This document shows, piece by piece, positions 6,480 to 38,218 of a DNA stretch of 45,130 bases; the first letter of the stretch is position 1, and each line of letters opens with the position of its first letter. Origin of the DNA: Escherichia phage vB_EcoP_R4596; sequence record MK373771.1; one strand, written 5' to 3'. A program made the position numbers and the translations under genes. The notes under the pieces were generated by a model. It did no database searches, was not told the origin of the DNA, and saw nothing but the letters and a program-made list of their open reading frames with translations.

Positions 6480-8468
6480 ATGGCTATTATTCAGAATGTA
6501 CCGTGTCCTGCCTGTCAAAAGAATGGACATGATATTACTGGCAACCATCTTATGATATTTGAGGATGGCGCTGGTTACTGTAATCGTGGTCACTTCCATG
6601 ATAACGGTAAGCCTTACTATCATAAGCCAGAGGGCGGCATCGAGATAACCGAATTGCCCATTACTGGCAATATCAAATACACACCTTCTCAATTCAAAGA
6701 AATGGAGAAGGAAGGGAAGATAAGCGACCCTAAGCTACGCGCCATCGCACTAGGTGGTATGCGTATGAAAGACCGTTGGGAGGTCATGAATGAGCAAGAA
6801 AGGGCAGAGCAAGAAGCAGAGTGGAAACTTGATGTTGAATGGTTCCTCACGCTTAAGCGTAAGAATCTTGTTTCCCGACACATTCGCGGCGACATTTGCG
6901 CATTGTATGATGTACGTGTCGGACATGATGAAGAGGGTAGAGTCTCACGGCATTACTATCCACGCTTCGAGAAAGGTGAACTAGTAGGCGCTAAGTGTCG
7001 CACATTACCTAAAGACTTTAAGTTTGGTCATTTAGGTAAACTATTTGGTATGCAAGATCTTTTCGGTATGAACACTTTGTCTCACGTGTTAGACAAGGGG
7101 AGACGAAAGGATTGCTTGCTTATTGTAGGCGGTGAACTTGATGCACTAGCAGCGCAGCAGATGCTCCTTGATTCTGCCAAAGGTACTAAGTGGGAAGGTC
7201 AGCCATACCATGTATGGTCTGTCAATAAAGGTGAGTCTTGCCTTGAAGAGATAGTGCAAAACCGTGAGCACATATCCCAATTCAAGAAGATTATATGGGG
7301 CTTTGATGGCGACGAGGTGGGGCAGAAGCAGAACCAACAAGCTGCTCGCCTGTTTCCTGGCAAATCCTACATCCTCGAATATCCATCTGGTTGCAAAGAT
7401 GCTAACAAGGCATTGATGGCTGGCAAGGCTAAAGAGTTTGTAGATGCATGGTTTAATGCCAAGTCATCTGATGAAGTCTTTGGTAGCCAGATTAAATCTA
7501 TCGCATCTCAAAGGGATAAGCTCAAGGCTGCACGTCCAGAACAAGGGCTGTCATGGCCTTGGCCTAAGCTAAACAAGGTAACGCTGGGTATCCGTAAGAA
7601 TCAGCTTATCATTGTAGGCGCAGGCTCTGGTGTGGGTAAGACTGAGTTCCTCCGTGAAGTAGTTAAGCATCTCATTGAAGAACACGGTGAATCTGTAGGC
7701 ATCATTTCTACAGAAGACCCGATGGTTAAGGTGTCCCGTGCTTTTATCGGTAAGTGGATTGATAAGCGTATTGAGCTACCGCCAACCAATGACCCGAAAG
7801 AAGATGGATACCGTGAGGTGTTCGACTATACCGAGGAAGAGGCTAACGCTGCCATTGACTATGTAGCTGATACAGGGAAGCTGTTTGTGGCTGACCTAGA
7901 GGGTGACTATTCAATGGAGAAGGTAGAGCAGACCTGCCTTGAGTTTGAGGCTATGGGTATTTCCAATATCATCATTGATAACTTAACGGGGATTAAATTA
8001 GATGAGCGTGCTTTTGGTGGGAAGGTTGGTGCACTTGATGAATGCGTCAAGCGGATTGGTACTATCAAAGACCGACACCCAGTTACTATATTCCTTGTAT
8101 CACACCTTACACGTCCTCCGGCAAACCGTACCCAACACGAAGAAGGTGGCGAAGTTATCCTTTCTGACTTCCGAGGCTCAGGAGCTATCGGATTCTGGGC
8201 ATCTTACGCCTTGGGCATCGAAAGGAACACGAGGGCAGAGACACTAGATGAGCGAACTACTACCTATATTTCCTGTGTTAAAGATAGGGATCAAGGGATT
8301 TACTCTGGTACTAAGATTATGCTTAAGGGTGACATCGCTACGGGCCGACTGCTAGAACCACAAGCCCGTACTAAGTCATTTGATACAGGTGAAGCAAGGC
8401 AACAAGAAGTACCTGATTTACCGGACACTATAGAAGAGACAACCTTTGACGATGAACAGGAGTTTTAA
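6480..8468 (+). CDS. DNA primase/helicase (T7 gp4-like, 662 aa)
   Basis: N-terminal Cys4 zinc motif CPACQ...CNRGH, Walker A GAGSGVGKTE, acidic C-terminal tail ending DDEQEF. Confidence 0.93.
   Translation: MAIIQNVPCPACQKNGHDITGNHLMIFEDGAGYCNRGHFHDNGKPYYHKPEGGIEITELPITGNIKYTPSQFKEMEKEGKISDPKLRAIALGGMRMKDRWEVMNEQERAEQEAEWKLDVEWFLTLKRKNLVSRHIRGDICALYDVRVGHDEEGRVSRHYYPRFEKGELVGAKCRTLPKDFKFGHLGKLFGMQDLFGMNTLSHVLDKGRRKDCLLIVGGELDALAAQQMLLDSAKGTKWEGQPYHVWSVNKGESCLEEIVQNREHISQFKKIIWGFDGDEVGQKQNQQAARLFPGKSYILEYPSGCKDANKALMAGKAKEFVDAWFNAKSSDEVFGSQIKSIASQRDKLKAARPEQGLSWPWPKLNKVTLGIRKNQLIIVGAGSGVGKTEFLREVVKHLIEEHGESVGIISTEDPMVKVSRAFIGKWIDKRIELPPTNDPKEDGYREVFDYTEEEANAAIDYVADTGKLFVADLEGDYSMEKVEQTCLEFEAMGISNIIIDNLTGIKLDERAFGGKVGALDECVKRIGTIKDRHPVTIFLVSHLTRPPANRTQHEEGGEVILSDFRGSGAIGFWASYALGIERNTRAETLDERTTTYISCVKDRDQGIYSGTKIMLKGDIATGRLLEPQARTKSFDTGEARQQEVPDLPDTIEETTFDDEQEF
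8415..8438 (+). promoter_or_regulatory. Phage-RNAP promoter inside the 3' end of the primase/helicase gene
   Basis: GATTTACCGGACACTATAGAAGAG. Confidence 0.65.
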
Positions 8469-8629
8469 TGGAAATTATTAAACCAGTATTGAATATCGGT
8501 ATTGAGATCCTATTCATGCTTGTGATCGCAGATTATGCTGCACGATATGGATTCAAGAAAGCTGTGAAACTTATCGTTGCATCTGGTTTTCTTATGTCAA
8601 TGTTCTTTATTGTAACACGTCTTATCTAG
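8468..8629 (+). CDS. Small hydrophobic membrane protein (53 aa)
   Basis: ATG overlaps the primase stop (TAATG); translation MEIIKPVLNIGIEILFMLVIADYAA... is hydrophobic. Confidence 0.4.
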   Translation: MEIIKPVLNIGIEILFMLVIADYAARYGFKKAVKLIVASGFLMSMFFIVTRLI

Positions 8630-8646
8630 TGTATTTATCAGGGCTT

Positions 8647-8662
8647 GTCTCACATGTGAGAC
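8647..8662. repeat. 16-bp perfect palindrome GTCTCACATGTGAGAC (copy c)
   Basis: Read directly; flanks extend the potential stem to about 12 bp. Confidence 0.9.
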
Positions 8663-8701
8663 AGGCTCTTATTAAGTACATTAAATAACTGGAGATTGAT
8701 T

Positions 8702-9424
8702 ATGTATAAATTAGTATTGAATGCAGGTGATTATGTTCGTAACATCAATGAAGCCTCACGTCGTTATCGTTGCCGTGGTGTGGTTAGCTATGTAAGTGAG
8801 AACATGTACCATGTGGAGTACAGCAACGGCATTAAACAATCTTATCATAAGAAGTTAGCACATAACTACCTTGAGAAGATTGGCGAGACAAGCAATCAAT
8901 GCAAGTGTGTACATGATGAGGTTTGCGATAAGTGCAAACGTCAGGCAATTAAAGCCTTTACCTTTGCGCAACGTTATGGTTCTATGTATGGTGCTGGTCA
9001 CAAGACCGTTGCAGAAGCAGCTTGGAAGACATTACAGTTTGAGCATTCAAATGGACGACGCACCACAATTAAGAAAGAGCGCCGCAATGTCATCACTGGT
9101 AAGACTCAAAGTGAGATGATTAAGCAATGTGGCACTGCATTAGGTGTTACACAGTTCAATACACGTGCTCTAGGTAAATCTACAGGACAAGCTATGTTTA
9201 AGATTGGTGAAGCCATGATGCATCCAAATGTACCTGTGCGAATCATGGATGTTGACCATGCAATCACAGAGCACGGCACACCACGACGTGTAGTTAATAA
9301 GCATTTTGCAGACACTATAGAAGGTATTATCCTTAAGCAAGGTTTAAAGGGTCTTCATATCTTAAACGGTGAAGAGTTGCTGTACCTCCCTATTGTTACT
9401 GAAGAAACCTACGTGAATATCTAA
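8702..9424 (+). CDS. Hypothetical protein with Cys cluster CKCVHDEVCDKCK (241 aa)
   Basis: GGAGA Shine-Dalgarno 6 nt before ATG 8702; no family recognized. Confidence 0.6.
   Translation: MYKLVLNAGDYVRNINEASRRYRCRGVVSYVSENMYHVEYSNGIKQSYHKKLAHNYLEKIGETSNQCKCVHDEVCDKCKRQAIKAFTFAQRYGSMYGAGHKTVAEAAWKTLQFEHSNGRRTTIKKERRNVITGKTQSEMIKQCGTALGVTQFNTRALGKSTGQAMFKIGEAMMHPNVPVRIMDVDHAITEHGTPRRVVNKHFADTIEGIILKQGLKGLHILNGEELLYLPIVTEETYVNI
9303..9326 (+). promoter_or_regulatory. Candidate intragenic phage-RNAP promoter
   Basis: ATTTTGCAGACACTATAGAAGG; the 14-nt core GACACTATAGAAGG is identical to the consensus. Confidence 0.4.
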
Positions 9425-9434
9425 GGAGTTAATC

Positions 9435-9653
9435 ATGACTAAAGTATTAATTTATATGAGAGGTGCTAATAAGTGCTATGCAGTTGTAGCACCTGATGGA
9501 GTCAAGCCGTATGGTACTTCAAAAGGACTGGCATTAATAGGTGCTAGTCACAGTGCAAGTTTCCAAATGGAACTTTTTGGTCATTGGACTGAAAAAGAAT
9601 TCCGTGAGGAATTTAATGTAATTGGCAGCTTTATGGTGAAACATGCAAAATAA
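9435..9653 (+). CDS. Hypothetical protein (72 aa)
   Basis: AAGGAG Shine-Dalgarno; no motif recognized. Confidence 0.5.
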   Translation: MTKVLIYMRGANKCYAVVAPDGVKPYGTSKGLALIGASHSASFQMELFGHWTEKEFREEFNVIGSFMVKHAK

Positions 9654-9840
9654 ACACAGCCTTAAGATGTTTGATGGTCATGAAGACCTGCAAGCACAAA
9701 TTACTAACCAAGCCTTCCTGTTTGCACAGTTAACTATGGCTGAAGCAAAGAAGAACAGCCTTACTCGTGAGCAGATTATCAAGGAAGGTAGCCGTGGTGT
9801 TACTCGTCGTACCAAGAACCACAGAAGTGGTGCTCGCTAG
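9643..9840 (+). CDS. Hypothetical protein (65 aa)
   Basis: ORF overlapping the upstream gene end; weak ribosome-binding site. Confidence 0.35.
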   Translation: MQNKHSLKMFDGHEDLQAQITNQAFLFAQLTMAEAKKNSLTREQIIKEGSRGVTRRTKNHRSGAR

Positions 9841-9857
9841 TCGATAAGTCAAGGGTT

Positions 9858-9873
9858 GTCTCACGTGTGAGAC
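9858..9873. repeat. Palindrome variant GTCTCACGTGTGAGAC (copy d, 15/16)
   Basis: One substitution in the central tetranucleotide; flanks AAGGG...CCTTT can extend the stem. Confidence 0.85.
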
Positions 9874-9998
9874 AGCCTTTCATCATATTGATTGGAGGTG
9901 CATTATGCCACGTGATTATGATTCTGATTGGGACTACTATGACTCAATGAATCCAAAACCCGAACGTTCAGATGATTACTACGAAACAGAGGCAATGT

Positions 9999-12545
9999 AT
10001 GAAAACTATTGATTGGAAGAAGGAAGCAGAAGGGCGCATCCTAGTGATGGATGCTGAAAGTAAAGGTCTGCTTGATGCTATCCGCTACGGTCATCGTGAA
10101 GATGTACACATCATTTGCTGCATGGACTTGCTCACCACTGAGGAGTTCCTCTTCTTCGACCCATATGAGATGCGTGATCCTGAAGCGAGGGAGCGCCTGA
10201 AAGAATGGGAAGGCCATCAAGATGGAACCTTGGTTGATGGTGTTAATTTCCTGAAGCATTGTGAAGCTATTGTGTCGCAGAACTTCCTAGGATATGACGG
10301 TCTTCTCTTTGAGAAAGCGTTCCCTGATATCTGGAAAGGCTTTAATTATACCGAGAAGCGCGGCAAGGGCAGACTCCGTGCCGACCTGTGTCCTGTGCGA
10401 GTCATGGACACGCTGGTGATGAGCCGCCTGTTAAACCCCGATAGACGCCTTCCTCCGCAAGCATATGCCAAAGGTATGGGTAACGTCGCCCCTCATTCAA
10501 TTGAGGCGCACGGCATCCGTATAGGACGCTATAAGCCGGAGAATGAGGACTGGTCTAAACTAACTGACCACATGGTTCACCGTGTCCGCGAGGACGTGGC
10601 AATCGGTCGTGACCTTTTCCTGTGGCTGTACAATGGAGAGTGGACGGAGCATAAACGCCGTGGCGTGAATAAACGCACTGGCCTAGGCATTGAGACAGCC
10701 TTCCACATGGAGTCTATTGTGGCGCTGGAGATGAGCCGTCAGGCAGAGCGTGGATTCCGTCTGGATATTGACAAAGCACTAGCGCGATGCGAAGAACTGG
10801 ACGCTAAGATTGATGAGACAGTCGCAGCGTTCCGCCCTCACATGCCTATGCGTATCAAGTCTAAACCTTTTAAACCGGAAGAAAAGAATGAAGTATGCCA
10901 ACGCGCAAATGAGTATGGAGCTAGCAACAATATACCTACTGTCCTTGACCCCTCACACTTTCTTCATGCCGAGAGACGAGGAGATCGCAAGACAGTATGG
11001 AGTGTCACTACTAAGTCTGGTGATTGGTCGGCTAGCGTCAAGAAAGACTTTCCTCACCTTAGAGGAAACCGTAATGACACGCCAAGCATCAAGTGGATTG
11101 GCGCTTACTCGCCTGTTACTTTCGAAGAGATTCCCTTGGGTAACAGGGATACAGTTAAGCAAGTGCTCTATGATTATGGATGGAAAGGTGTTGAATTTAA
11201 CGATACCGAGCAAGCGCATCTCGATGAGCATGGCGTATTACCCAAACCTTGGAGTGGAAAGATAAATGAGAAATCCCTTACTTTATGGCAAGAAAGAGCC
11301 GCACGTGAAGGTAAAACAGTACCAGATTGGTGCTTGGGTATCGCTGCATGGTACATACTCGTATCCCGTCGTGGTCAGATCCTCAACCGTGGTGACGTTG
11401 AAGCCTTCGATCAGAAGGGGGCGTGGCCTTCGCAAGCTGGTGTACGAAAGTGTCGCGGCCTTATACCTGTAGCCTTTAACAAGGAATTAGGAATCAATGC
11501 GCAACAATACTACGAGAGGTATGGGTATTGGCCTACGTCTGACAAGGATGACGGAGAGTGGCGTGTGCCAGCTATTGCTATTAGTATTGGCACTTCTACG
11601 TTCCGTATGCGTCATCGCAATGTGGTTAATATTCCTGCCCGTGGCTTGTATCCTTTACGTGATTTATTCATAGCAGGTAAAGGTAAGCTAATCCTTGGTT
11701 GTGATGGTGCAGGTCTTGAACTACGTGTACTTTCTCACTTCATGAATGACCCTGAGTACCAAGATATTGTACTGCATGGCGATATACATACTCATAACCA
11801 GATGAAGGCGGGTCTTCCTAAGCGTGATATGGCGAAGACATTTATATATGCCTTCCTTTACGGCTCTGGTATAGCTAACCTTGCAGCAGTGTGCGGTGTT
11901 ACTGAGGAAGAAATGAAGGAAGTTGTGGCAAGATTCGAGATTGAATTACCATCCCTTGCACGTCTTCGTGAGAATGTTATCGCACAAGGCAACAAGTTTG
12001 GATACTTACAAGCACCTGACGGGCATTGGGGTCGCATCCGTATGTCTGGTGGAGAACTTAAAGAGCACACTATGCTTAATGTATTACTCCAAATGACTGG
12101 CTCTTTGTGTATGAAATACGCATTGGTCAAAGCGTTTGCAGTGATGCGCAAGGAAGGTGTGGCCTTAGATAGTATGGGACACCCTTGTGGTGTAGCTAAC
12201 GTGCACGATGAAATCCAGATGGAAGTACCTGAAGAAGAGGTATTGTATCTTAACTACGACCTACCTTTCACCTTAGAGGGGTTTGAAACAGAGAAGGCTG
12301 CTGTGAAAGCAGTATTCGATGCAGAGGAGAAACGTGTTCATGTGGATTCTGAAGGACGTATGTGGTCTGCTGCAAATCTCATTAGTGTTGATGCTGCTGC
12401 TGGTGTACTTCATTGCCAGCGTCGTTATCACCGCGCAGGGCATATCATTGCCGACGCCATGACTTGGGCTGGTCAGTATCTGAAGATGCGTTGCCCGATG
12501 GCAGGCGAGTATAAGATTGGCGCAAGCTGGAAGGAAACGCACTAG
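9999..12545 (+). CDS. DNA polymerase, family A with 3'-5' exonuclease domain (T7 gp5-like)
   Basis: Exo motif ILVMDAESKGL, motif B KTFIYAFLYGSG, motif C VANVHDEIQMEV; likely start ATG 9999 with GAGG ribosome-binding site (track begins at 9972). Confidence 0.93.
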   Translation: MKTIDWKKEAEGRILVMDAESKGLLDAIRYGHREDVHIICCMDLLTTEEFLFFDPYEMRDPEARERLKEWEGHQDGTLVDGVNFLKHCEAIVSQNFLGYDGLLFEKAFPDIWKGFNYTEKRGKGRLRADLCPVRVMDTLVMSRLLNPDRRLPPQAYAKGMGNVAPHSIEAHGIRIGRYKPENEDWSKLTDHMVHRVREDVAIGRDLFLWLYNGEWTEHKRRGVNKRTGLGIETAFHMESIVALEMSRQAERGFRLDIDKALARCEELDAKIDETVAAFRPHMPMRIKSKPFKPEEKNEVCQRANEYGASNNIPTVLDPSHFLHAERRGDRKTVWSVTTKSGDWSASVKKDFPHLRGNRNDTPSIKWIGAYSPVTFEEIPLGNRDTVKQVLYDYGWKGVEFNDTEQAHLDEHGVLPKPWSGKINEKSLTLWQERAAREGKTVPDWCLGIAAWYILVSRRGQILNRGDVEAFDQKGAWPSQAGVRKCRGLIPVAFNKELGINAQQYYERYGYWPTSDKDDGEWRVPAIAISIGTSTFRMRHRNVVNIPARGLYPLRDLFIAGKGKLILGCDGAGLELRVLSHFMNDPEYQDIVLHGDIHTHNQMKAGLPKRDMAKTFIYAFLYGSGIANLAAVCGVTEEEMKEVVARFEIELPSLARLRENVIAQGNKFGYLQAPDGHWGRIRMSGGELKEHTMLNVLLQMTGSLCMKYALVKAFAVMRKEGVALDSMGHPCGVANVHDEIQMEVPEEEVLYLNYDLPFTLEGFETEKAAVKAVFDAEEKRVHVDSEGRMWSAANLISVDAAAGVLHCQRRYHRAGHIIADAMTWAGQYLKMRCPMAGEYKIGASWKETH

Positions 12546-12729
12546 TGGATAGATTAGATATTGTTTGCTTGTTCTTTACCTTCTTTCTTGTCTTTCTTAT
12601 GCTTGCTTGTTATGGAAGTATTCAGGTAAATATACCTGATGAAGAGGAAGGATACGACTGAGTTATACTCAAGGTCACTTACGAGTGGCCTTTATGAATA
12701 ACTTACTCCTACTTATTTTGTCTAACATG

Positions 12730-12752
12730 ATTTACTGGACACTATAGAAGGA
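12730..12752 (+). promoter_or_regulatory. Phage-RNAP promoter
   Basis: ATTTACTGGACACTATAGAAGG. Confidence 0.75.
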
Positions 12753-12816
12753 AAGCCTAGGTAATCTAGGTTTATAAGGTAGTATAGGTAATTAAGTAAA
12801 TATAGGAGATATAAAT

Positions 12817-13194
12817 ATGTCTATGGTAACTACTCTGGTATTCGTAGCTCAATACTTTCGTGGCCTGGCTAATAAGTTTAAACAGAAAGCAATCTTTGCA
12901 ATTCAAGAACGTATTAATAAAATTGAAGAAGAACAAGTAGATGTAGAGGAACATCGTAGTTCTCAGATGATTGACCTGCATAATCGTCTGTACAAAGATC
13001 GTGATGAGATGCGTCACCGTCATGCGAAGGAAGTTGAAGACATGCTTAACCGCCATGCGGAAGAACAAGCTAAGTTGGAAACCACCTTCCATGAGGATAA
13101 ACGTAGCATCGCTCTAGCACATCAAGCTGCATCGGATATCCTGAAGAGAGAGATTGTTATGCTGGAGATTGAGTTAGACAATCTTACCAAATAA
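12817..13194 (+). CDS. Hypothetical protein with hydrophobic N-terminus and charged coiled-coil region (125 aa)
   Basis: GGAGA ribosome-binding site; no family recognized. Confidence 0.55.
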   Translation: MSMVTTLVFVAQYFRGLANKFKQKAIFAIQERINKIEEEQVDVEEHRSSQMIDLHNRLYKDRDEMRHRHAKEVEDMLNRHAEEQAKLETTFHEDKRSIALAHQAASDILKREIVMLEIELDNLTK

Positions 13195-13216
13195 TTACTG
13201 GACACTATAGAACAAT
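13193..13216 (+). promoter_or_regulatory. Phage-RNAP promoter
   Basis: AATTACTGGACACTATAGAACAATAGG. Confidence 0.7.
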
Positions 13217-13356
13217 AGGTCGGCTTAGTTCGGCCTATGATTGTAAAGTGTTGAACCTTATTGTGCATCTTGCACAACCCGATACAGTATCGGGCTTTCT
13301 AGTGAGTACATGCTTGTGCTCAGTACAAAGCTAACTGACGATAGGAGACTAAATAA

Positions 13357-14163: not shown

Positions 14164-14169
14164 GGAGGG

Positions 14170-14391
14170 ATGATGAAGGTACAAATCGTAACCCTGCACT
14201 GCAAGAAGGGCATTACAACCCTTGGCGGAAACACTTTTCACTCCTTCTCTGAAGGGGAGACATATTCTGACCTGCACTACATCTGGCGCGATGGGCAGCA
14301 CGTGGTGAACTACAGCGACCCCGCTACAGGGAAACGCCACGGCGTATCTCTTCCGGCGCACGACATTGCTCAGGTGAACACAGTTTTATAA
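14170..14391 (+). CDS. Hypothetical protein (73 aa)
   Basis: AAGGAGGG Shine-Dalgarno; no motif recognized. Confidence 0.5.
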   Translation: MMKVQIVTLHCKKGITTLGGNTFHSFSEGETYSDLHYIWRDGQHVVNYSDPATGKRHGVSLPAHDIAQVNTVL

Positions 14392-14392
14392 A

Positions 14393-14408: not shown

Positions 14409-14422
14409 AAATCGGTGTCCAG

Positions 14423-14446: not shown

Positions 14447-14495
14447 AAGAATTTTAATCGGCGATAATGCCATAACTAACAAAGGAGAATTTAAT

Positions 14496-14864
14496 ATGTT
14501 CAAGATTGAAACTATCGTAAACCGTGTTGTTAAAGGTGCTGCTCTGGTGTCCGTTGAATCTTTCATTATCGTCGATGAAGCTGATCAACTGGTAGCTGGC
14601 ACTAAGGCTTACGATACCCGTGAAGAAGCTCAGGCTAAGATTGACAGCATGGGTAACTTTGCTGCTGGTCTGGAGTTCGCTCGTGCTTGCTTCCCTGAGC
14701 AGGCTGACAAAGCACAGATTGGTAAGGCTAATATCGTAGCTGAATATCTGGATTGGGTTGCTGCTGGTAAACCAGTGAAAGAAGCTAAGGCTGAAGAAGC
14801 TGAAGCTCCTGCAGTAGAAGAAACCAAAGCAGAAGAAGCTCTGTCTGCTGAAGAAGAATTTTAA
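14496..14864 (+). CDS. Small acidic protein of unknown function (122 aa), boxed by its own promoter and terminator
   Basis: AAAGGAGA ribosome-binding site; C-terminal tail ...EAKAEEAEAPAVEETKAEEALSAEEEF ending in Phe. Confidence 0.65.
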   Translation: MFKIETIVNRVVKGAALVSVESFIIVDEADQLVAGTKAYDTREEAQAKIDSMGNFAAGLEFARACFPEQADKAQIGKANIVAEYLDWVAAGKPVKEAKAEEAEAPAVEETKAEEALSAEEEF

Positions 14865-14870
14865 TTGATG

Positions 14871-14905
14871 CCCTGTCTGCCTTAGTGTAGGCAGGGTCTT
14901 TTGTG
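14871..14905 (+). terminator. Tphi-like stem-loop terminator
   Basis: CCCTGTCTG-CCTTAGTG-TAGGCAGGG then TCTTTTGTG; covaries with the capsid terminator at 23931. Confidence 0.7.
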
Positions 14906-16160: not shown

Positions 16161-16555
16161 AATCTTCAGAGGTGGCAGCTTATAAGAAAGAGCTTATGGA
16201 GAAGCAAGGTTGGAAGTGTCCTCTGTGCGGAGGCAGCCTTAAGGCAGTAAGTCCTATCAACCGTGTACTTGACCATGATCATGAGACAGGTTTCTGTCGT
16301 GCTGTTGTGTGTCGTGGCTGCAACGGTGCAGAAGGAAAGATTAAGGGTGTTATATCTGGCTACGGAAAGGCAGGTAATAACCGCTACTTCCAACTACAAT
16401 GGTTAGAACGCCTGTATAACTACTGGAAGTTGCATAGTACACCTCAGACAGATAAGTTATATCATAATCATAAAACGGAGGCAGAGAAACGAGAGGCTAA
16501 AAATCGTAAGGCTCGCCTTGCTTATGCAAGAAAGAAGGAGGTTAAGAGTGGCTAA
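16145..16555 (+). CDS. Endonuclease VII-like Holliday-junction resolvase (T4 gp49 family)
   Basis: CPLCGG...LDHDHETGFCRAVVCRGCNGAEGKIKG...LQWLERLYNYW matches the T4 endonuclease VII zinc/HNH-like core as recalled. Confidence 0.8.
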   Translation: MASKLKSSEVAAYKKELMEKQGWKCPLCGGSLKAVSPINRVLDHDHETGFCRAVVCRGCNGAEGKIKGVISGYGKAGNNRYFQLQWLERLYNYWKLHSTPQTDKLYHNHKTEAEKREAKNRKARLAYARKKEVKSG

Positions 16556-17555
16556 ACTTCGTAGCCTTTATAAAGACTCCGAGGTGCTTGATGCAATCGA
16601 GCAAGCTACCGACGAGAAAGGTAATGTTAACTATAATGAGATGGCGAAGGTTCTATCTAGCCACCCTGTGGGTAAGAAGATCACCCGTCAACTTGCTCGC
16701 TACTGGCATGGTCAATTCAAGAAGACCAAGAAGAATGGTGATTATTACCAGACTCTTCTGCAAGAGGATAAGCGTATCAAAGAAGAGCGTAAGCTCAGGA
16801 CTCCTGACCGCTACGAGGATTTGGCTATTGTACCATTGCCTGACTCGCCTCATCGAAGTGTACTGGTAATCCCTGATACTCATGCACCTTATGAGCACCC
16901 AGATACCTTAGAGTTCCTTGCAGCAGTGGCAGCACGTTATCGACCAGACACAGTGGTACATCTTGGAGATGAGGCAGATAAACATGCCCTGTCATTCCAT
17001 GATTCGGATCCAAATTTGGACAGTGCTGGCATGGAGTTAGAGAAGGCTCGTGTCTTCATGCACAAGTTGCACAAGATGTTCCCTGTGATGCGCCTGTGTC
17101 ATTCTAACCATGGCTCTATGCACTTCCGTAAGGCAAGCGCCAAGGGTATTCCAGTACAATATCTGCGTACCTACCGTGAAGTCTTCTTCCCGCAGGGAGG
17201 TGGCGACCAGTGGGACTGGCAGCATACGCATGTACTTGAGTTACCGAATGGCGAACAGGTGGCGTTCAAGCATCAACCTGCCGGCTCTGTCCTAGCAGAT
17301 GCAGCGCATGAGCGTATGAACCTTGTGTGTGGTCATCTGCATGGCAAGATGTCTGTGGAGTATGCACGTAATACCCATGAGCAGTATTGGGCTGTGCAGG
17401 GTGGCTGTCTAATTGATGAGTCATCTCGTGCATTTGCCTATGGTCGAGAGTCTAAGTACAAGCCAGCATTAGGTTGTGTGGTTATTCTGGATGGTGTGCC
17501 GCACATTGTCCCGATGCAGACCAATAGTGACAATCGCTGGATTGGTAAGATTTAG
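16548..17555 (+). CDS. Calcineurin-like metallophosphoesterase with about 100-aa N-terminal extension
   Basis: Motifs VIPDTHAP, HLGDEADK, HSNHG, CGHLHG; likely GTG 16548 start with AAGGAGG Shine-Dalgarno 7 nt upstream (track begins at 16518). Confidence 0.75.
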   Translation: MAKLRSLYKDSEVLDAIEQATDEKGNVNYNEMAKVLSSHPVGKKITRQLARYWHGQFKKTKKNGDYYQTLLQEDKRIKEERKLRTPDRYEDLAIVPLPDSPHRSVLVIPDTHAPYEHPDTLEFLAAVAARYRPDTVVHLGDEADKHALSFHDSDPNLDSAGMELEKARVFMHKLHKMFPVMRLCHSNHGSMHFRKASAKGIPVQYLRTYREVFFPQGGGDQWDWQHTHVLELPNGEQVAFKHQPAGSVLADAAHERMNLVCGHLHGKMSVEYARNTHEQYWAVQGGCLIDESSRAFAYGRESKYKPALGCVVILDGVPHIVPMQTNSDNRWIGKI

Positions 17556-17572
17556 TTGACACTATAGAACAA
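17550..17572 (+). promoter_or_regulatory. Phage-RNAP promoter, closest copy to the SP6 consensus
   Basis: ATTTAGTTGACACTATAGAACAAAGG. Confidence 0.7.
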
Positions 17573-19796: not shown

Positions 19797-20006
19797 ATGG
19801 GTGTCGTGAAGAAGGCATTTAAAGCAATTGGTCTTGCACCTGAGACGCCGAAAATTGAGGCGGCTAAGACTCCGGCACAACAGTTAGCGCGTGAACCGGA
19901 GACTACGGCAGAGGATATTACATTAGGCCAAGATGATAGCGCAACGGCTGCGGCACGTGGTAAGCGTGGACTGATTCGTCCAGTGGCATCGAGCTTAGGG
20001 GTTTAA
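19797..20006 (+). CDS. Small virion-associated protein, possibly gp6.7-like (69 aa)
   Basis: AAGGAGG Shine-Dalgarno; located just before the portal gene; composition loosely like T7 gp6.7. Confidence 0.45.
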   Translation: MGVVKKAFKAIGLAPETPKIEAAKTPAQQLAREPETTAEDITLGQDDSATAAARGKRGLIRPVASSLGV

Positions 20007-20205
20007 TATGATGCAAGACACCGACCTTGAGTATGGTCTCCGGCACAACAGTTAGCGCGTGAACCGGAGACTACGGCAGAGGATATTACATTAGGCCAAG
20101 ATGATAGCGCAACGGCTGCGGCACGTGGTAAGCGTGGACTGATTCGTCCAGTGGCATCGAGCTTAGGGGTTTAATATGATGCAAGACACCGACCTTGAGT
20201 ATGGT
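19870..20205. repeat. Perfect tandem duplication, 2 x 168 bp (19870-20037 and 20038-20205)
   Basis: Direct reading; the unit spans the 3' end of the 69-aa gene and the first 10 codons of the portal gene. Confidence 0.95.
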
Positions 20206-23921: not shown

Positions 23922-23930
23922 TAACCTATG

Positions 23931-23966
23931 CCCTATCTACCTTGCGTAGGTAGGGTTCTTTTGTTT
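23931..23966 (+). terminator. Tphi-like terminator after the capsid gene
   Basis: CCCTATCTA-CCTTGCG-TAGGTAGGG then TTCTTTTGTTT. Confidence 0.75.
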
Positions 23967-27844: not shown

Positions 27845-30787
27845 ATGGCAATTGAACGTCAAGCTGTACAAGGACTAGAAAGAGTACAGTCAAGGGGCGC
27901 GCCAACACCTATGTCTTTCACACCACGACAAGTGAGTATCTCAGGGGGCGCGGATGCCTCCGGTAGTAGATTTTTGGAAGACTTAGTAAACGCTGCAAGT
28001 AGTGTGGCTGATGTCACTACTGCTATCCTTAATCAGCAAGTAGAAGACGATAAGGTTCGCCAGATGGATAGGGCTTTGTCTGGCATGATGCCTTCTGAGG
28101 ATGCTACGGTAGGTGGTGCTCGTGCGCATATGCTGGTTAGTTTACAAAATGATGTAATCGCACAGACAACTGCGCTACAAGTAGAAGCACAGCGATTTCA
28201 AGGTAGTGACGAGGATTGGGAAAACTATGTAGTTCAATCTCGTAATGAGGTACAAAATAGGTTATGGCAAAGTTATCCAGAGCTTCGTGGTGACAAAGAT
28301 TCTATGAGACTTGTCACTAACGCGTTCATGGAGCAGCAACCTAGAATTACTGCAACTAGAGCAGAGGCTAAACTTCGTCAAGAAGAAGAAGCACGAATGC
28401 AATCTATGCAGTCTCGTATTATCATGGCTACACGGGACGTAGCGCCAGATGCCACTGGTGCAGCACTCATCCAGTTACAAAAAGAAGCACTGGCGATGGG
28501 TCTTAGTAAACCTGAGTTTGATCAGATGGTTGCTAAGATTGCATCTGACAGAGCGGCAGTAGGAGATGATAGTCTTATTCAGGGAACCAAAGCACTGGTG
28601 GATGATAAGGGTGTCTCTTTGTATGACCGTGTTGGTGCTTTGCAAACTGGAGAGATTCAAGCTAACAGAGCTTGGGCTGCGCAGAATCAGGTTGCCCTCT
28701 TTGAGAAGAAGGATGCAGCTATAAAGGCATTCGATGCAGGGCAACTTACTCGTGAAGAGTTACTTCAGGTGATGCAGAATCACAATGAATTGACTGGTGG
28801 TACTGCTTGGTCTGATAGCGAGATCAAGGCTATCTTCGATAGGCAAGCTAAGGCTAATGCAGAGAAAGCAAAGCTCGAAGATCTTATTGCACGAGGTGAA
28901 TCTGGGTCGCCTTTAGGTTTACAGGATATTAGTAAGGATGACAGAAAATCCTATGCTGAAGCCTTAGTTAGTACCTACACTAAGTTGGCAGAAGATGAAA
29001 TTGCCCGTACTGGTGCAACGGGAGAACAGGCTGAAGCTATTCGCGGTAGGTATGAGCAGATGCGTTATCTTAAATTAGGGCAACAACTTATTGAAGACCC
29101 AATCATTAAGGAAAGATATTCGTCGCTTATGCAATTATCCTCTGCCAACCTTAAAGATATGAATGTTGAGCCTGAAGCATTACAGACCATCATGCGAGCG
29201 CGGGACTCTATTCCAGAGGATGCACGTCGTGCTGTCATGGGAGACAAAGAGTATGCCTTTGTAGAGAACTACGACCTAGCAACTCGCATGGGGTATAACG
29301 CAGGTCAAGCTATTGAGTTTGCACAGAATGCCTCTCGTGGAGAGAAGCTACAAGGTTCTGTACTTAAAGAACTGAATGATGATGTAGATGGAGTTGTAAG
29401 TGATGTGGCAGGAGGTAGTTGGCTTACTCGTGGCGATAATATGAGTGAGATGGGTCGTGACATTATGATGGAGGAGGCAAGTACAATTGCGAGAGCAATG
29501 AAGGTTGCAGGTCATAATAATGACACGATTAAACGTCATCTTAAATCCTATTTGACGAGCCAGTATACACAGTTATCAGAGGGCTTCTTCACCCAAGGTG
29601 TTCTGGTGAAAGGTGATGTACGAACATTAGGTGACACTATAGGAGTAAACCAGAATGACCTTCCTATGGCGCTACGTCAATATATGGATAACAACAAGCA
29701 AGCACTTCTTGATGCATCAGGTGGCTTAGAAGAGGGTGATTTGTATTTTGATGTAGATGCGCAGCGGGGACTCTTTACCATACGTGCAGGGTCTGGTCGT
29801 GTACCTGTTACGCAGGCAATGCCTTTGTCTGAAATCAAAGGGCAGTCCTTGCTTAAGCAAAGATATGATGCAGAGGTTAAAGCCCGTGATGAGGGGCGTA
29901 AGAATTTTGAAGCACAGCAAATGAGGATGTGGGGCGCAGGTGGCTACCAAGCACAACCACCTGCAAAGACTACAGCCAAAACTGTAGGCTCCCGTGGGAT
30001 TGCTGACTTCTTAATGTCACCTGCCTTTGCATCAGGCGAGAATCTACCAGCAAACTTTGAGTTTGGATATAAGAGGAATAATATGGACTTCTACAATTAT
30101 GTAGCCAAGATGGAGAATAATGCCAATGTGGGCTTTGACCGAGTAGCTGGTGTTTATACACCATACAAAGATGCACATGGTCAATCTGTCGGGTACGGTC
30201 ACTTCCTTACTACTGAAGAGAAGAAGAACGGATACATTATGATTGGTACAGAGAAAGTGCCATTCACTCCGGGACAATCTCAATTAACACCAGAACGAGC
30301 CATGCGCCTTCTACAGCAAGACTTGAAGAGTCATGTGCCAAACACTTCAGGGTGGGCTGTTCCATTCGAAGAGATGCACCCAGGTGTTCAGCGTGGCCTT
30401 ATGGACTTGTCCTATAATTTAGGCAAAGGAGGTATCCAGAATGCACCTAAAGCCTATGCTGCGTTTAAGGCTGGCAAGTTTACTGATGGATTTATTGAGA
30501 TGTTATCTACTGCATCTACTGAAGGTAAGCGTAGTACTGGGTTGTTGGTTCGTAGGGCAGAAGCATACAACCTTGCACAGAGTGGAGGTGCTATTCCTAA
30601 GATTAGTGAAGTAGAGACACGAGCCGATGGGTCTATGTATGTTAAGTTTGCAGGACAGATGTCAGAGGCTTTCGTAAATAAATCAATCTACAATCAGATT
30701 GGTAAGGATGGATGGCTGCAAGTGTACCCTCCAAAACAAGGTGTACTTGCACCTAACACCAAGATTGGTAGAATCAAACTAAGCTAG
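27845..30787 (+). CDS. Internal virion protein with C-terminal lysozyme-like (GH24) domain
   Basis: Position; C-terminal MENNANVGFDRVAGVYTPYKDAHGQSVGYGHFLT...GVQRGLMDLSYNLGKGG resembles the T4-lysozyme Glu/Asp/Thr core as recalled. Confidence 0.75.
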   Translation: MAIERQAVQGLERVQSRGAPTPMSFTPRQVSISGGADASGSRFLEDLVNAASSVADVTTAILNQQVEDDKVRQMDRALSGMMPSEDATVGGARAHMLVSLQNDVIAQTTALQVEAQRFQGSDEDWENYVVQSRNEVQNRLWQSYPELRGDKDSMRLVTNAFMEQQPRITATRAEAKLRQEEEARMQSMQSRIIMATRDVAPDATGAALIQLQKEALAMGLSKPEFDQMVAKIASDRAAVGDDSLIQGTKALVDDKGVSLYDRVGALQTGEIQANRAWAAQNQVALFEKKDAAIKAFDAGQLTREELLQVMQNHNELTGGTAWSDSEIKAIFDRQAKANAEKAKLEDLIARGESGSPLGLQDISKDDRKSYAEALVSTYTKLAEDEIARTGATGEQAEAIRGRYEQMRYLKLGQQLIEDPIIKERYSSLMQLSSANLKDMNVEPEALQTIMRARDSIPEDARRAVMGDKEYAFVENYDLATRMGYNAGQAIEFAQNASRGEKLQGSVLKELNDDVDGVVSDVAGGSWLTRGDNMSEMGRDIMMEEASTIARAMKVAGHNNDTIKRHLKSYLTSQYTQLSEGFFTQGVLVKGDVRTLGDTIGVNQNDLPMALRQYMDNNKQALLDASGGLEEGDLYFDVDAQRGLFTIRAGSGRVPVTQAMPLSEIKGQSLLKQRYDAEVKARDEGRKNFEAQQMRMWGAGGYQAQPPAKTTAKTVGSRGIADFLMSPAFASGENLPANFEFGYKRNNMDFYNYVAKMENNANVGFDRVAGVYTPYKDAHGQSVGYGHFLTTEEKKNGYIMIGTEKVPFTPGQSQLTPERAMRLLQQDLKSHVPNTSGWAVPFEEMHPGVQRGLMDLSYNLGKGGIQNAPKAYAAFKAGKFTDGFIEMLSTASTEGKRSTGLLVRRAEAYNLAQSGGAIPKISEVETRADGSMYVKFAGQMSEAFVNKSIYNQIGKDGWLQVYPPKQGVLAPNTKIGRIKLS
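29624..29646 (+). promoter_or_regulatory. Candidate intragenic phage-RNAP promoter
   Basis: CATTAGGTGACACTATAGGAG matches the SP6-type core TTAGGTGACACTATAG. Confidence 0.4.
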
Positions 30788-30804
30788 TGGTATACTCAAG
30801 GTTT

Positions 30805-30820
30805 GTCTCACATGTGAGAC
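30805..30820. repeat. 16-bp perfect palindrome GTCTCACATGTGAGAC (copy f)
   Basis: Read directly; between two internal virion protein genes; flanks AAGG...CCTT and a following TTTATGAAT shared with the hairpin at 12648. Confidence 0.9.
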
Positions 30821-30854
30821 ATGCCTTTATGAATGACACTGACTAGGAGGTAAC

Positions 30855-33800
30855 ATGGTTGATAGTATTAACCAAAACTGGGTGGCGGTGACTCAACGCA
30901 AGTTACCGCCTACCTTCTCTCAAATTGCTGAAGCTGAGCGTAAGGCTGAAGCCCAGAGAGCTAATGATAAAGTGTTTCAAACAGCATTAGAAAGTGAGTG
31001 GGCTTTATATGGCGGACAACGTGCCTATGAACGCCACACTACAGAGTTTGCTGAACAAGAAGGCTATGAAGTGCCTGAGTCAACTAAGGATGAGTTATCC
31101 AAGTTGTATGGGTATGAAATAGCGCAAGACATAGTTAAGAATGTAAAGTCTCCAGAAGAGTTGCAATTCCGTATGTCTAATGCTGCTGCTGATAAAGACA
31201 GAGCAGACATCTTAGCACGTAATGGTTTCACGGGTTTCAGCGCGCAGATTGCTGCTGGCATCCTTGACCCTGTAGGTTGGGCTGCATCCTTAGTGGCTGC
31301 GCCTGTAGCGGGTGCTGTCAAAGTAGGTAGGCTAGGTAGGATTATCAAGACGGCTGCCTTATCAGGTGCTGAAAATGCTGCATTAGAAGCTATACTTGCA
31401 CAAGGTGATTACCAGCGAGGGGTTGATGATGTACTGGCTGCTGCCGGATTTGGTATGATTATGGGCGGCACTATTGGTGCTGCAACCAGAGAGCGCATAG
31501 CCAGTGCTGGTTCTCGTACAGCGGCAGAACGAGCAGATGCTGTAGTTGATGACTTGGACACTGTAGTAAAAGGTGCTGATGAATTTGACTCGTCTGCGGC
31601 TCGTGCTGTACGTGAAGCTATGGAATATGACGCGTATATGGCAGCGCGTAATTACGAACCACTTCGTGCAAGAGAGGTAGATGCAGACATGGCGATTCTG
31701 TCTCACACAGACAATTTGAAAGCCAATGCATCGGTAAGGATGAGTGCTAGTGAGAAAGGGCAACTGAAGAAGCAGATACGTCAGCTTGAAGCAGAAGCAG
31801 CAACACTTAAAGGGAAGAAGATAGACACTGTAGCGGAAGCTGCGGCTGCTAAGGGTGCACCTAAATCTGCTGCTGACAGATTAGATTTGGATGTTCAGAA
31901 GAAAGCATTAGCACGTAGATTTGATGAACCACTGGCAGACTTACAAGCGCGTCTTGATGAGTTGAATGCTAAATTGTCTCGTGTAAACAATGTAGGCAAA
32001 GCCAAGGAAGAGCTTAAGAGATTCTCATCGCTATCTCGTGAAGAGCAAATAAAGGAGTTAGGTCTAGACGCACCAGTGCGCAAGGTAGAGATGACCCGTG
32101 CCGTGCGAGATGCAATTGACGCAATCCGTGCCGAGCGTAAGAAGACGCCTACCGAAATACATGCTGAACAAGTCGCAGAAGATGCAATTAAGCAAAGGGC
32201 AGACGACTCTGTTGGTGCTAAACGTGTTGAAGGTTCAGAGATTGCAGGTGAACAGTTTGACCTATCTAAAAACATGGAAGAACTTATGGATGACTTGGCA
32301 CGAGAAGCATACCAGTCAGAGGTGCGGCCTATTAATCTTAAGGGTTTAGGTTCAGTGTCTTCTGTGATTCTTAACTCAGAGAATCCTGTGTTCCGAGGCC
32401 TAGGTCTTCGTCTGCTTGAAAATGCTCAAGGTGGTGCATATCAAGGTAAGACAGCTTCTATCTTATCAGATGTGTATGGCAACCTTATTCGTCATGCAGA
32501 ACGTAACAGATACAATGATGGCTTCTCTCAGTTCATCAAAGATAATAACCTACGTGCGGTAGATTATCTTAACCCTGCAACGACAAGGGATTTCAATAAT
32601 CAGATTTATACAGCAATTGTTCGTGGCATACCAGAAGATACACCTCGTGGTGTTAAACTGGCAGCCGAAGGTATTGCAGATAAGCTCAAGAAAGCACTGG
32701 AGATTCGTAAGCAAGCAGGTGAGCGAGGCTTCGAGGATGTGCAATCTGCTAAAGATTATATTCCCGTTATCTACGATGGTATCAAGATCACAGAGGCAGT
32801 TAACAAGTTAGGTAGTAGTGAAGCTGTCATTCACTTGCTATCTAAAGGGTATCAGACAGGCAAGTACAAACTTGGCAAGAAAGCTGCTGATGCACTAGCC
32901 AAAGTTCAGTATATTCGCGCATCTGACTCCACCCTCTCTAGTCGTGTTGCATTCGATAGAGTAGTATCCCAGCAGCAGCAGGCTCAATTGATTGAGGATC
33001 TGAAGAGAGCAGGAGTACCAGACCATATCATTGATAATTTCATTGAAGGTACGGAATTAGCAGAAATGGCTGAATCGGTATCCAATCGAGCTAAAGCTAG
33101 CATGGGTATTAATACGCAAGCCGAATATGGCGGTTTGAAGGTGCAGGATTTGCTTAATACAAACGTAGGCGAGCTAGCTGAGAACTACGGCAAAGAGGCA
33201 GCAGGCGGTGCTGCATTAGCTGCCATGGGTTTCCCCACTCGCCAGTCTGTGCTGAATGCGATAGATGCCGCAGAACGCGCAGGTCGTAATATGGCGGGGT
33301 CAAATGCTAAGGCAATCAAACAGCTTAGAGCTGAGGCAGAAATGCTCAGAGATGCCGTTAAGCTCATTTACGGCAACACTATTGACGCCGACCCTAACTC
33401 TGGAATTGTCAGAGGCACTCGACGTGTCCGTGAGATTACAGGCTTGTTACGATTGGGTCAAATGGGCTTCGCTCAGATACCAGAACTGGCACGTGCAATC
33501 TCTAAGATGGGATTAGGTACTGTGCTGAAGTCCATACCTGCCACGAAGTTCTTACGTTCAAGGGCGGCTCGTAAGGGAGGAACAGCTCAAGGTGAATTAC
33601 TTGAACCTGAACTGCGAGAAATGGAGGAACTCTTAGGCTATATCGGGGAAGATAACTGGCTTACAGGGTGGAACGTCCGTCATGATGAGTTCGGAGAAAC
33701 TGCTGATAACCTAGGTAAGCTGTCTGCTATTATTGATAACGGATTAGCTATGGGTAGTAGAATCAACACAATACTCTCTGGATTTAAAGCAGTACAAGGT

Positions 33801-37600: not shown

Positions 37601-37741
37601 GAAGAGGCAGTTGAGGCTGGCGACCGTTATCGTCTTCGTAGAGAAGAGCTGATGTGGTGGTGCATGAAGGCACAGAATGCTTGGATTGAATCTATTGAGG
37701 GGAGGCTGGCGAAATTAGAAGATAAACTCAAGGAGGTGTAA
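34658..37741 (+). CDS. Tail fiber with T7 gp17-like N-terminal anchor and C-terminal intramolecular chaperone-like (peptidase S74-type) domain
   Basis: N-terminus YTYTDHVANGSQVTFPFRF...ISATDVQV...IRIRRIV follows the T7 gp17 adaptor pattern; C-terminal CDARLKTDARELTAAEKSAFLEISKL resembles the SDxRxK autoprocessing motif. Confidence 0.8.
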   Translation: MSYTYTDHVANGSQVTFPFRFAGRDKAYISATDVQVGFVEAGTWLPATGWTLSGTNQITFLTPPTEGKQIRIRRIVDKINPYAYFERGNVLDINSLNNSFIKNLQVSQEILDGFFPEGFYFKTDLDMGGHKIINLHEGSESGDAVNYDQFKELSDRVNEIESDLTGLSHRTVPMYYIATGGESRWEIGHWTFDAAILFINGVFQNQNLGAFTISNNGFNFAEPLQKGDEVYALVGSRIAAPDEYVTISDLKDPDKAWRLIGRKYPFATDGTFMSKVVHDVDYSNIFIGASGLSQGFCIVDTPQGARMFFHQPIPSTNKVRFVETTFNPEGDNENPSVISFSQELDDIGHQTVCGVYEAGGVRLYTLSADEKSYYIIDWLGNNTSNTHMRKVQIPTEGIYSKDLFVSVGMSEDTKTLVFHATTNTQAFGNKDDARAIYLFDRKTLDSTSTRGLKRRFEVGAPAAPDMAFQGVACDDRFLYIYHGYNGVLLSHKISVFTLSGEHVRDIPVDSVRVKYGERMYGDADLGYPVLQEPEGLAMYKGKLYMLCMDFWYKNASVVTFAGRTFATRKSSAFSGYSPLQSSYWTPTNLIPPTGAPEYNKTATYSCSNATKLSKAIVSLEIDDGTGFPASVGCSLPESSASVYLNNRAMNMAIGPNENFQFGVFHQNLQSYKNLLQLNRENPNTDGSAAVWRLFGGAFTDDIQNERFVQIKHRLNPTQDAMELRADVDLTSGGGINLYSMNDSASPGRVRLYCTDGYSYWSALLSPASPSFHPDQDKTLNLGTANNRWNLVHCQGIRIISNDELQKQVFLETTRKKGALQISTSGNLGVWDSSAGTYVVATRPDGTGFSQVEMSFKGDVFPEINNTYNLGRENKAWANAYFQNAPTVVCDARLKTDARELTAAEKSAFLEISKLPAVWQWLAKLEVEGEDARLHSGCTVQAAISVMEKHGLDWTKYSAFCYDKWDAKEAVYDIVDGKAILVEEAVEAGDRYRLRREELMWWCMKAQNAWIESIEGRLAKLEDKLKEV

Positions 37742-37935
37742 TGATAAACTCCGAACTGGTAGATAATGGTGTGAAGCTGGCGCCACCTGCATTAGTCTCA
37801 GGTGGGTACTTCCTCGGTATCAGTTGGGACAATTGGGTACTGATAGCAACATTCATTTATACAGTGTTGCAGATTGGCGATTGGTTCTATACTAAATATA
37901 CAATATGGAGGAATAAGCATGAGCGTGCACAATAA
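37741..37935 (+). CDS. Class II holin (T7 gp17.5-like)
   Basis: DNWVLIATFIYTVLQIGDWFYTK resembles T7 gp17.5 NEWFYVAAIAYTVVQIGAKVVDK as recalled; follows the tail fiber gene. Confidence 0.7.
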   Translation: MINSELVDNGVKLAPPALVSGGYFLGISWDNWVLIATFIYTVLQIGDWFYTKYTIWRNKHERAQ

Positions 37936-38218
37936 ACATGCAGCCACAGAGGATGAAGTAGGCATCCTTCATGGCGCTATTACGAAGATGTTTAATAAGA
38001 AAGCACAGGCTATACTGGACACTATAGAAGAAGACCCTGCTTCTGCTATGCACTTAGTGTCAGGTAAGGATATTGGAGCCATGTGTAAGTGGGTTTTAGA
38101 TAATGGCATTACTGCAACCCCTGCTGCACAGCAGGAAGAATCTAAGTTGTCTAAGCGTCTCAAGGCTATCAGAGAGGCGTCCAGTGGTAAGATCATTCAG
38201 TTTACTAAGGAGGATTAA
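37919..38218 (+). CDS. Terminase small subunit (gp18-like)
   Basis: Position immediately upstream of and overlapping terminase large; GGAGGA ribosome-binding site before ATG 37919. Confidence 0.55.
   Translation: MSVHNKHAATEDEVGILHGAITKMFNKKAQAILDTIEEDPASAMHLVSGKDIGAMCKWVLDNGITATPAAQQEESKLSKRLKAIREASSGKIIQFTKED
38010..38032 (+). promoter_or_regulatory. Phage-RNAP promoter inside the terminase small gene
   Basis: CTATACTGGACACTATAGAAGAAG. Confidence 0.6.

Follow-up and report, generated by a model that had tools for sequence, protein, structure and literature searches.

SP6-type promoter sequences inside four genes of Escherichia phage vB_EcoP_R4596: likely internal start sites for the phage's own RNA polymerase

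The genome of Escherichia phage vB_EcoP_R4596 (sequence record MK373771.1) carries four copies of an SP6-type phage promoter within protein-coding sequence, namely in the genes for a primase/helicase, a function-unassigned protein, an internal virion protein with a lysozyme domain and the small terminase subunit. We consider it likely that all four serve the phage's own SP6-type RNA polymerase (RNAP) as promoters and stand in coding sequence for want of intergenic space. The window analysed, 45,130 bp in length, is the complete linear phage genome, bounded by a perfect direct terminal repeat of 285 bp (1-285 = 44846-45130), and the phage was placed in the SP6/K1-5 group (Autographiviridae, Molineuxvirinae, genus Vectrevirus), with vB_EcoP-CC1 and vB_EcoP-CC2 (98.4% over 90% of the right third) and vB_EcoP-101118B1 (97%) as the nearest records. 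Every long open reading frame (ORF) with homologues lies on the + strand, and the chosen + strand ORFs cover ~91% of the genome. Among these is the gene for a single-subunit RNAP (3395-6022, + strand), whose product is 85% identical to SP6 RNAP over 875 amino acids, the full length of the protein, and is annotated in relatives as DNA-directed RNA polymerase. The phage thus encodes the cognate single-subunit enzyme of SP6-type promoters, and, judged by its sequence, this polymerase is the one expected to read the embedded copies.

The case begins with the promoter complement of the whole genome. The core of the classical SP6 promoter, GACACTATAG (positions -9 to +1), occurs in 12 exact copies, all 12 on the + strand, against an expectation of ~0.04 per strand, and shuffled sequences never reached the observed count of core matches with one mismatch or fewer. 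These near-identical elements all run parallel to the genes, and four of the 12 are embedded; the remaining eight are intergenic or abut a stop codon, and comprise the promoter at 6114-6136 (+1 at 6131) together with those whose +1 positions are 12747, 13210, 14441, 17567, 22658, 40132 and 42485 (all + strand). The SP6-type element sought was 23 bp long, extended from -17 to +6 and had the form ATTTA(C/G)(T/C/G)(G/T)GACACTATAGAAG, including the GA at -9/-8 that sets SP6-type specificity; the embedded sites conform to this type, and their core from -9 to +1 is exact in all four cases. With a weight matrix derived from the phage's eight intergenic promoters, the embedded sites with +1 at 8433, 38027, 9320 and 29642 scored 37.4, 27.8, 17.9 and 13.3 bits, respectively, compared with 25-39 bits for the intergenic promoters, 2.2 bits for the top non-promoter position, 3.7 bits for the top position on the - strand and 13.2 bits for the top score over 30 shuffles. 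A matrix of eight sites is too harsh on bases unseen among those eight and is unfit as a measure of strength; it was replaced by a comparison with 32 intergenic promoters drawn from this phage, K1-5, ACG-C91 and SP6, among which positions -17, -15, -14 and -13 are invariant, as is A at +3. By this comparison the helicase site has no base that is unseen at its position, and the other three have one to three such bases, all of them at -17, -15, -13, -11 or +5/+6. A sequence-only reading of the window had described the four sites as consensus or near-consensus promoters, a description that holds, and had placed their sequences correctly to within 1 nt.

The same reading had assigned each site to the interior of a gene, in a frame that encodes D-T-I-E or D-T-I-G, and this too is borne out. 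Each element lies from -17 to +6 within a long + strand ORF for a real conserved protein, with all four hosts matching PHROG families (E values between 8e-26 and 0). The distance from site to host stop codon ranges from 35 to 1145 nt. In genome order the codons GAC ACT ATA GAA or GAC ACT ATA GGA specify D-T-I-E, D-T-I-E, D-T-I-G and D-T-I-E. As for the names of the hosts, PHROGs supports primase/helicase and small terminase, and the label "internal virion protein B" proved to be an approximation only for what is a homologue of SP6 gp36.

Placement of this promoter in coding sequence imposes a bargain on the protein. As one of the alternative frames holds a TAG stop, the core is always read GAC ACT ATA G; the host protein is thereby committed to D-T-I with E or G as the next residue, and its gene to the rare Ile codon ATA. 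That all four embedded cores share the same reading frame is, with the TAG frame excluded and two frames possible, an outcome with P ~0.06 and alone not significant. The tripeptide D-T-I occurs five times in the proteome and is encoded GACACTATA in four of these, where codon usage predicts 0.022 per site (P ~1e-6), which argues that the DNA motif explains the peptide and not the reverse. Additionally, homologous regions were collected from IMG/VR contigs and reference genomes, codon alignments were built, and pairwise synonymous diversity in the codons that overlap -17 to +6 was set against that in every other window of this length in the host gene. The promoter codons came out ~2-5 times less diverse at synonymous sites than the rest of their genes: 0.047 vs a mean of 0.238 in other windows for the helicase site (empirical rank 0.011), 0.098 vs 0.251 for the site in the function-unassigned gene (0.037), 0.092 vs 0.244 for the small terminase site (0.117) and 0.264 vs 0.440 for the internal virion protein site, the last with 17 sequences (0.019). 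Fisher's combination of the four empirical ranks gives P ~5e-4, a value that is indicative only, the sequences being mutually related.

The positions at which the embedded promoters depart from consensus are equally instructive. Deviations at -17, -15 and -13 coincide with bases set by conserved residues, namely the middle base of Ala or Thr codons, the initial base of an Ile codon and the last base of a Phe codon (in an invariant N-K-H-F), and the degenerate positions mostly, though not in every case, hold the base that matches the promoter (TTA Leu, CTG Leu, ATA Ile, GAC, ACT and GAA). Where a conserved residue forbids the consensus base at -17, -15 or -13, the promoter remains imperfect and is presumably weaker. 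The claim that protein and promoter are jointly constrained is therefore supported by the low synonymous diversity and by the residue-fixed mismatches, as well as by the co-variation of the helicase site and the directional changes of the terminase site described below. Conservation beyond what the protein needs was found at all four sites, with a weaker and mixed signal at the internal virion protein site. These data also bear on the principal alternative, which holds that some or all of the internal sites, mainly 29642 and to a lesser extent 9320, are inactive look-alikes that amino-acid constraint and shared ancestry have kept in place, or else relics of formerly working promoters, with no part in present-day transcription. 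We regard this as improbable for the set as a whole: a 10-mer expected 0.04 times per strand stands in four unrelated genes, always on the coding strand, and neither the choice of GAC ACT ATA in four of five D-T-I tripeptides nor the synonymous constraint at all four sites, 29642 included, is what such an account would lead one to expect.

The strongest of the four cases, on comparative sequence grounds, is that of the helicase site. It occupies 8416-8438 (+ strand; ATTTACCGGACACTATAGAAGAG) with its +1 G at 8433. The site falls within the 17 codons that close the primase/helicase gene (6480-8468, + strand; PHROG 239, E = 1.5e-186), encodes D-L-P-D-T-I-E-E (residues 646-653 of 662) and stands 35 nt upstream of the next ATG (8468). 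It matches the intergenic consensus in full. The match to PHROG 239 stops at residue 646 of 662, and the promoter accordingly lies in a variable acidic C-terminal tail that ends in Phe. The corresponding tail of T7 gp4 is flexible and makes contact with the DNA polymerase, and this would be a tolerant place for a promoter. Comparison among relatives showed that the position of the site is kept in at least seven promoter-specificity classes, with the +1 located 32-47 nt before the helicase stop in every class. Relatives whose intergenic promoters read ACCACTATAG, CGGACTATAG, GCTACTATAG, GCGAGTATAG or CCCAGTATAG carry a copy of their own promoter at the helicase tail, and 17-22 of the 23 bases of the helicase copy match the post-RNAP intergenic promoter of the same phage. 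The tail peptide tracks the promoter class in turn, as LPDTIE, LGDTIE, LETTIE, LGRTIE, IGATIE, IVAGIE or LPPSIE. Such co-variation with promoter specificity is hard to reconcile with an inactive look-alike, and the helicase site is very probably active as a promoter.

The small terminase gene supplies evidence of a different kind, in that it suggests how an embedded promoter may be born. The site lies at 38010-38032 (+ strand; CTATACTGGACACTATAGAAGAA) with +1 at 38027, and encodes A-I-L-D-T-I-E-E, residues 31-38 of 99. The host (PHROG 891, + strand) is taken as 37919-38218, although the mechanical ORF opens at 37874: its alignment with K1-5 gp39 and SP6 gp40 begins at ORF residue 16, which makes 37919 the likely start. 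Relative to the 32 intergenic promoters its unseen bases are C at -17 and A at -15. The site is found in 12 of 14 Vectrevirus relatives, the other two having a mutated core (GGC or GAT). Outgroup terminases read I-L-D-A-I-E (ATC CTN GAT GCT ATC GAG), I-L-A-A-V-E in SP6, or similar, in codons that do not spell a promoter. The Vectrevirus sequence ATA CTG GAC ACT ATA GAA differs by one replacement (A>T) and four synonymous changes, every one of them toward the promoter consensus, a direction of change that again runs counter to the look-alike account. From these alignments, the terminase promoter reads as a Vectrevirus-specific gain from an ancestral I-L-D-A-I-E, and it is quite likely that the 38027 site is active.

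The third site, at 9303-9325 (+ strand; ATTTTGCAGACACTATAGAAGGT) with +1 at 9320, encodes H-F-A-D-T-I-E-G near the end of a function-unassigned gene (8696-9424, + strand, with an ATG at 8702; PHROG 6703) that is homologous to K1-5 gp10 and SP6 gp11. Its exact core is kept in 10 Vectrevirus relatives, and its only bases unseen elsewhere are T at -13, which the invariant Phe codon forces, and T at +6. In the SP6 group the homologous gene encodes H-F-x-x-x-L-R-D-T-I-G, with the promoter four codons further on than in the H-F-A-D-T-I-E of Vectrevirus, and yet in both groups the promoter stands ~80-105 nt before the stop despite the diverged protein context. With these properties the 9320 site is probably active as a promoter, a judgement held slightly less firmly than that on the terminase site. 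As a separate observation, the homologue of 9290-9325 in one contig (L009, IMGVR_UViG_3300000288_000022) has a 1-nt deletion just upstream of the promoter, by which the TAG of the promoter becomes a stop codon and the protein is truncated; this deletion may be a sequencing error.

The remaining site, at 29625-29647 (+ strand; CATTAGGTGACACTATAGGAGTA) with +1 at 29642, lies midway along the gene for the lysozyme-domain internal virion protein (27845-30787, + strand; PHROG 4290), where it encodes T-L-G-D-T-I-G-V, residues 594-601 of 980. The host gene is of the SP6 gp36 type, its product sharing 81% identity with SP6 gp36 and 44% with K1-5 gp35, and this SP6-type allele sits in a Vectrevirus backbone. 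The exact core is common to SP6 gene 36 (+1 at 29410) and other SP6-type alleles, and K1-5-type alleles are without it. C at -17 is unseen among the intergenic promoters; G at -11 and T at +5 are known from SP6 and not from Vectrevirus, and the bases at -12 to -10 are the GGT of SP6. An earlier synonymous test with only nine sequences gave a rank of 0.165 here; with 17 sequences and 600 codons, the L-G-D-T-I codons (-15 to -1) have a synonymous diversity of 0.145 vs 0.439 (rank 0.0017), which puts them in the lowest 0.17% of windows. A shorter lysozyme-domain isoform translated from a 29642 transcript was considered and set aside as unsupported, the first in-frame ATG (29666) having no usable Shine-Dalgarno sequence (a GGAG stands 20 nt upstream) and its Met not being conserved (SP6 has T-V).

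Several observations weigh against a promoter role for some or all of these sites. Our literature search turned up no 5'-end mapping, transcriptome or in vitro transcription evidence for any SP6-like phage. For each of the sites there is one viable relative or more (among K1-5, SP6, L015, L017 and L026) in which it is missing or altered: the relatives L017 and L026 are without the helicase site, which in K1-5 has GAT (-7 T), the internal virion protein gene of K1-5 has no site, L015 is without the site of the function-unassigned gene, and the small terminase of SP6 is without a promoter. The sequences compared are related, which means that the empirical ranks given above are not true probabilities. 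The doubts concentrate on 29642, which deviates at -17 and bears the SP6-type GGT at -12 to -10, and whose +3 varies among relatives, although A is invariant there in the 32 intergenic promoters. In addition, a clade that uses GACACTATAG promoters (L077-L081 and L087) has GACGCTATAG at this site, a mismatch at -6, and the relative L083 retains GACACTATAG there while its own promoters read ACCACTATAG. The peptide L-G-D-[T/A]-I-G is thus kept where the DNA mismatches the phage's own promoter, as look-alikes maintained by the protein would be. That account further draws on the matrix scores of 29642 and 9320, which fall far under the intergenic range; the score of 29642 is about equal to the shuffle maximum, so that the matrix alone cannot separate this site from chance. 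Taken together, these points leave 29642 as a mixed case and the least certain of the four, the one site for which an inactive look-alike is a reasonable possibility, and the balance of the sequence evidence tips only somewhat toward its being an active promoter. The absence of each site from some viable relative suggests, moreover, that the embedded sites modulate expression and are not essential.

If the four sites are promoters, as we favour, what they might contribute can be read from the anatomy of the genome. The RNAP would bind the duplex from -17 to -5, melt -4 to +2 and initiate at the G of TATAG. Transcription from the embedded sites would proceed rightward, in the direction of every gene, and would top up read-through transcripts for the genes downstream. 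The leaders from embedded start to next ATG measure 35, 115, 1213 and 191 nt in genome order, and the ATG at the end of each is preceded, at a distance of 5-8 nt, by AGGAG or GGAGG. Since the stop codon of the helicase gene shares bases with the start codon that follows (TAATG), and the two terminase genes have one base in common, a promoter for the downstream gene must sit inside the upstream gene. The helicase-tail promoter would serve two genes, the one of 53 codons at 8468 and that at 8696, and the 9320 promoter, 115 nt ahead of the ATG at 9435, would serve the genes at 9435 and 9643 and the DNA polymerase gene. For the two rightmost sites, the context is set by a strong intrinsic terminator directly after the major capsid gene (23930-23956, + strand; an 11-bp stem followed by TCTTTTGTTT). 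Between this terminator and the promoter at 40132, the sole phage promoters are those at 29642 and 38027, without which there would be a promoter-free stretch of 17.5 kb; both would refill transcription behind the terminator, 29642 for the large internal virion protein and the tailspike gene (the next gene, at 30855, lies 1213 nt downstream) and 38027 for the large terminase, whose ATG (38218) lies 191 nt downstream. Co-directionality, the mostly short leaders and good Shine-Dalgarno sequences all fit the proposal in the sequence-only reading that the sites provide internal transcription starts for downstream genes. Initiation by the RNAP at these sites, and how strong it is, we infer.

A further feature touches the helicase promoter. 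Directly past it (8439-8468) lies a mosaic breakpoint, at which identity to K1-5-type relatives drops from 96-98% up to +6 to 66-69% from +7 to the stop, and the module downstream of it differs among relatives, which have or lack the 53-codon gene at 8468. This arrangement suggests that promoters can mark recombination junctions. It also lends something to a second alternative, in which the sites do bind RNAP and their main selected role is other than the supply of mRNA, such as genome entry, the priming or activation of replication, or service as ~20-bp homology "linkers" for module exchange. In T7, transcription-driven genome entry and promoter-associated origins, among them the primary origin, are established. 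Apart from the sharp breakpoint, this alternative can point to the site-bearing internal virion protein gene, an SP6-type allele in a Vectrevirus backbone. However, the coincidence with a breakpoint is seen at one of the four sites only, and short leaders, good ribosome-binding sites nearby and a location behind the capsid terminator are what one would expect of ordinary mRNA promoters. Roles in entry, replication or linkage would, besides, add to transcription initiation and not replace it. We judge such a main role to be quite unlikely, marginally more so than inactive look-alikes.

Promoters for the phage's own RNAP inside genes are not in themselves new: they are an already described, textbook feature of compact T7-group genomes, and the particular sites in SP6 and K1-5 are almost certainly already known. 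The closest parallel in T7 (RefSeq NC_001604, L070 in our set) is the class II promoter phi4c, an RNAP promoter whose +1 (12671) lies inside gene 4A/4B (11565-13265), the primase/helicase gene. Like phi4c, the best-conserved embedded site of the present phage is gene-parallel and stands in the primase/helicase gene, although phi4c lies ~600 nt before the end of T7 gene 4, as opposed to the last 17 codons here. One of 16 annotated T7 promoters is fully internal in the stretch examined, compared with four of 12 in the present phage, and the T7 consensus (TAATACGACTCACTATAG) differs from that of this phage. T7 illustrates another way of sharing sequence with a gene: phi1.3, phi1.5, phi1.6, phi2.5, phi4.3, phi9 and phi17 have their +1 exactly 15 nt after the upstream stop in the RefSeq record, which means that the TAA of the promoter itself (-17 to -15) is the upstream stop codon.

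Within the SP6 group the correspondence is much closer. The core of the SP6 promoter (ATTTAGGTGACACTATAGAAGAG) is identical to that of the present phage from -9 to +1, and the two polymerases are 85% identical, but SP6 has GGT at -12 to -10 where this phage has mostly CTG or CCG. Exact cores in SP6 fall at +1 8428 (helicase 3' end, gene 10), 9129 (gene 11) and 29410 (gene 36); the genes concerned are the SP6 homologues of three of our four hosts, and the gene-11 site is shifted by four codons relative to 9320. A 2025 paper gives 12 occurrences of SP6 promoters in the SP6 genome (PMC11880802). The + strand of SP6 has eight intergenic exact cores, which together with the three embedded cores and a site at 2121 with A at +1 make 12, so that the published count must include the embedded copies. 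The Vectrevirus phages K1-5, K1E and ACG-C91 share the consensus of the present phage (ATTTACTGGACACTATAGAAGAG). K1-5 has embedded cores at +1 9027 (gp10) and 35505 (gp39, the small terminase), its helicase site differing by the synonymous change GAC>GAT noted above; ACG-C91 has them at +1 8845 (helicase), 9732 (the gp10 homologue) and 36493 (small terminase). Both lack the internal virion protein site, as they carry the other allele of this gene, which is 44% identical, and the present phage combines all four. The GenBank records of K1-5, SP6 (two records), K1E and ACG-C91 have no promoters annotated.

Specialists of the T7 group would not be surprised by the embedded-promoter pattern as such. 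What the comparison adds, and what makes it modestly interesting, are the helicase-tail promoters that are conserved in position and co-vary with specificity, as well as the birth of the terminase promoter. A broader picture can be drawn from the alignments, for and against which we see the chances as evenly divided: the helicase-tail position would be held throughout Molineuxvirinae, with the tail peptide rewritten at each change of polymerase specificity; new embedded promoters would arise by a few, mostly synonymous changes; and the evolution of RNAP specificity would thus be coupled to unrelated proteins, at promoters that may double as crossover points for modules. In practical terms, a transcription map that takes in only the intergenic regions would leave out one in three phage promoters, and promoters would be lost unknowingly whenever such a phage is recoded or refactored, or its genes for the helicase, small terminase or internal virion protein are codon-optimised. 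The sites also offer a small and clean example of dual coding, in which a signal dictates D-T-I-E/G, a rare ATA is retained on grounds other than translation and the promoter can be only as good as conserved residues allow.

Other features of the genome were recorded alongside. Besides the post-capsid terminator, strong intrinsic terminators are present behind the RNAP gene (6030-6053) and, at 14870-14897, behind a gene that ends at 14864. A tandem duplication of 168 bp, perfect in sequence (19870-20037 and 20038-20205), extends from the end of a 69-codon gene (19797-20006) to the start of the portal gene (20176); it may have arisen recently or be an artefact of assembly. Two of the non-embedded promoters touch the gene upstream of them: the 13210 promoter (13193-13215) has its -17 in the TAA stop of ORF 12817-13194, and -17 to -12 of the 17567 promoter (17550-17572) span the last codon and the stop of ORF 16518-17555. 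After the RNAP gene, a module consisting of a hairpin (TGTCTCACATGTGAGACTT) and a promoter (6095-6131) is repeated 183-186 nt downstream (6278-6317), and the promoter in the second copy has C>G at -5 (GACAGTATAG). The relative L019, which has a different promoter core, carries a -5 G variant in an equivalent place (+1 at 2340), which raises the possibility that the variant is conserved and has a function, such as that of an origin or an attenuated promoter. Finally, a promoter-like site in the early region upstream of the RNAP gene (2082-2104) has A in place of G at +1 (ATTTAGCTGACACTATAAGAGAG), and this A-at-+1 site is kept in both K1-5 (+1 at 2031) and SP6 (+1 at 2121).

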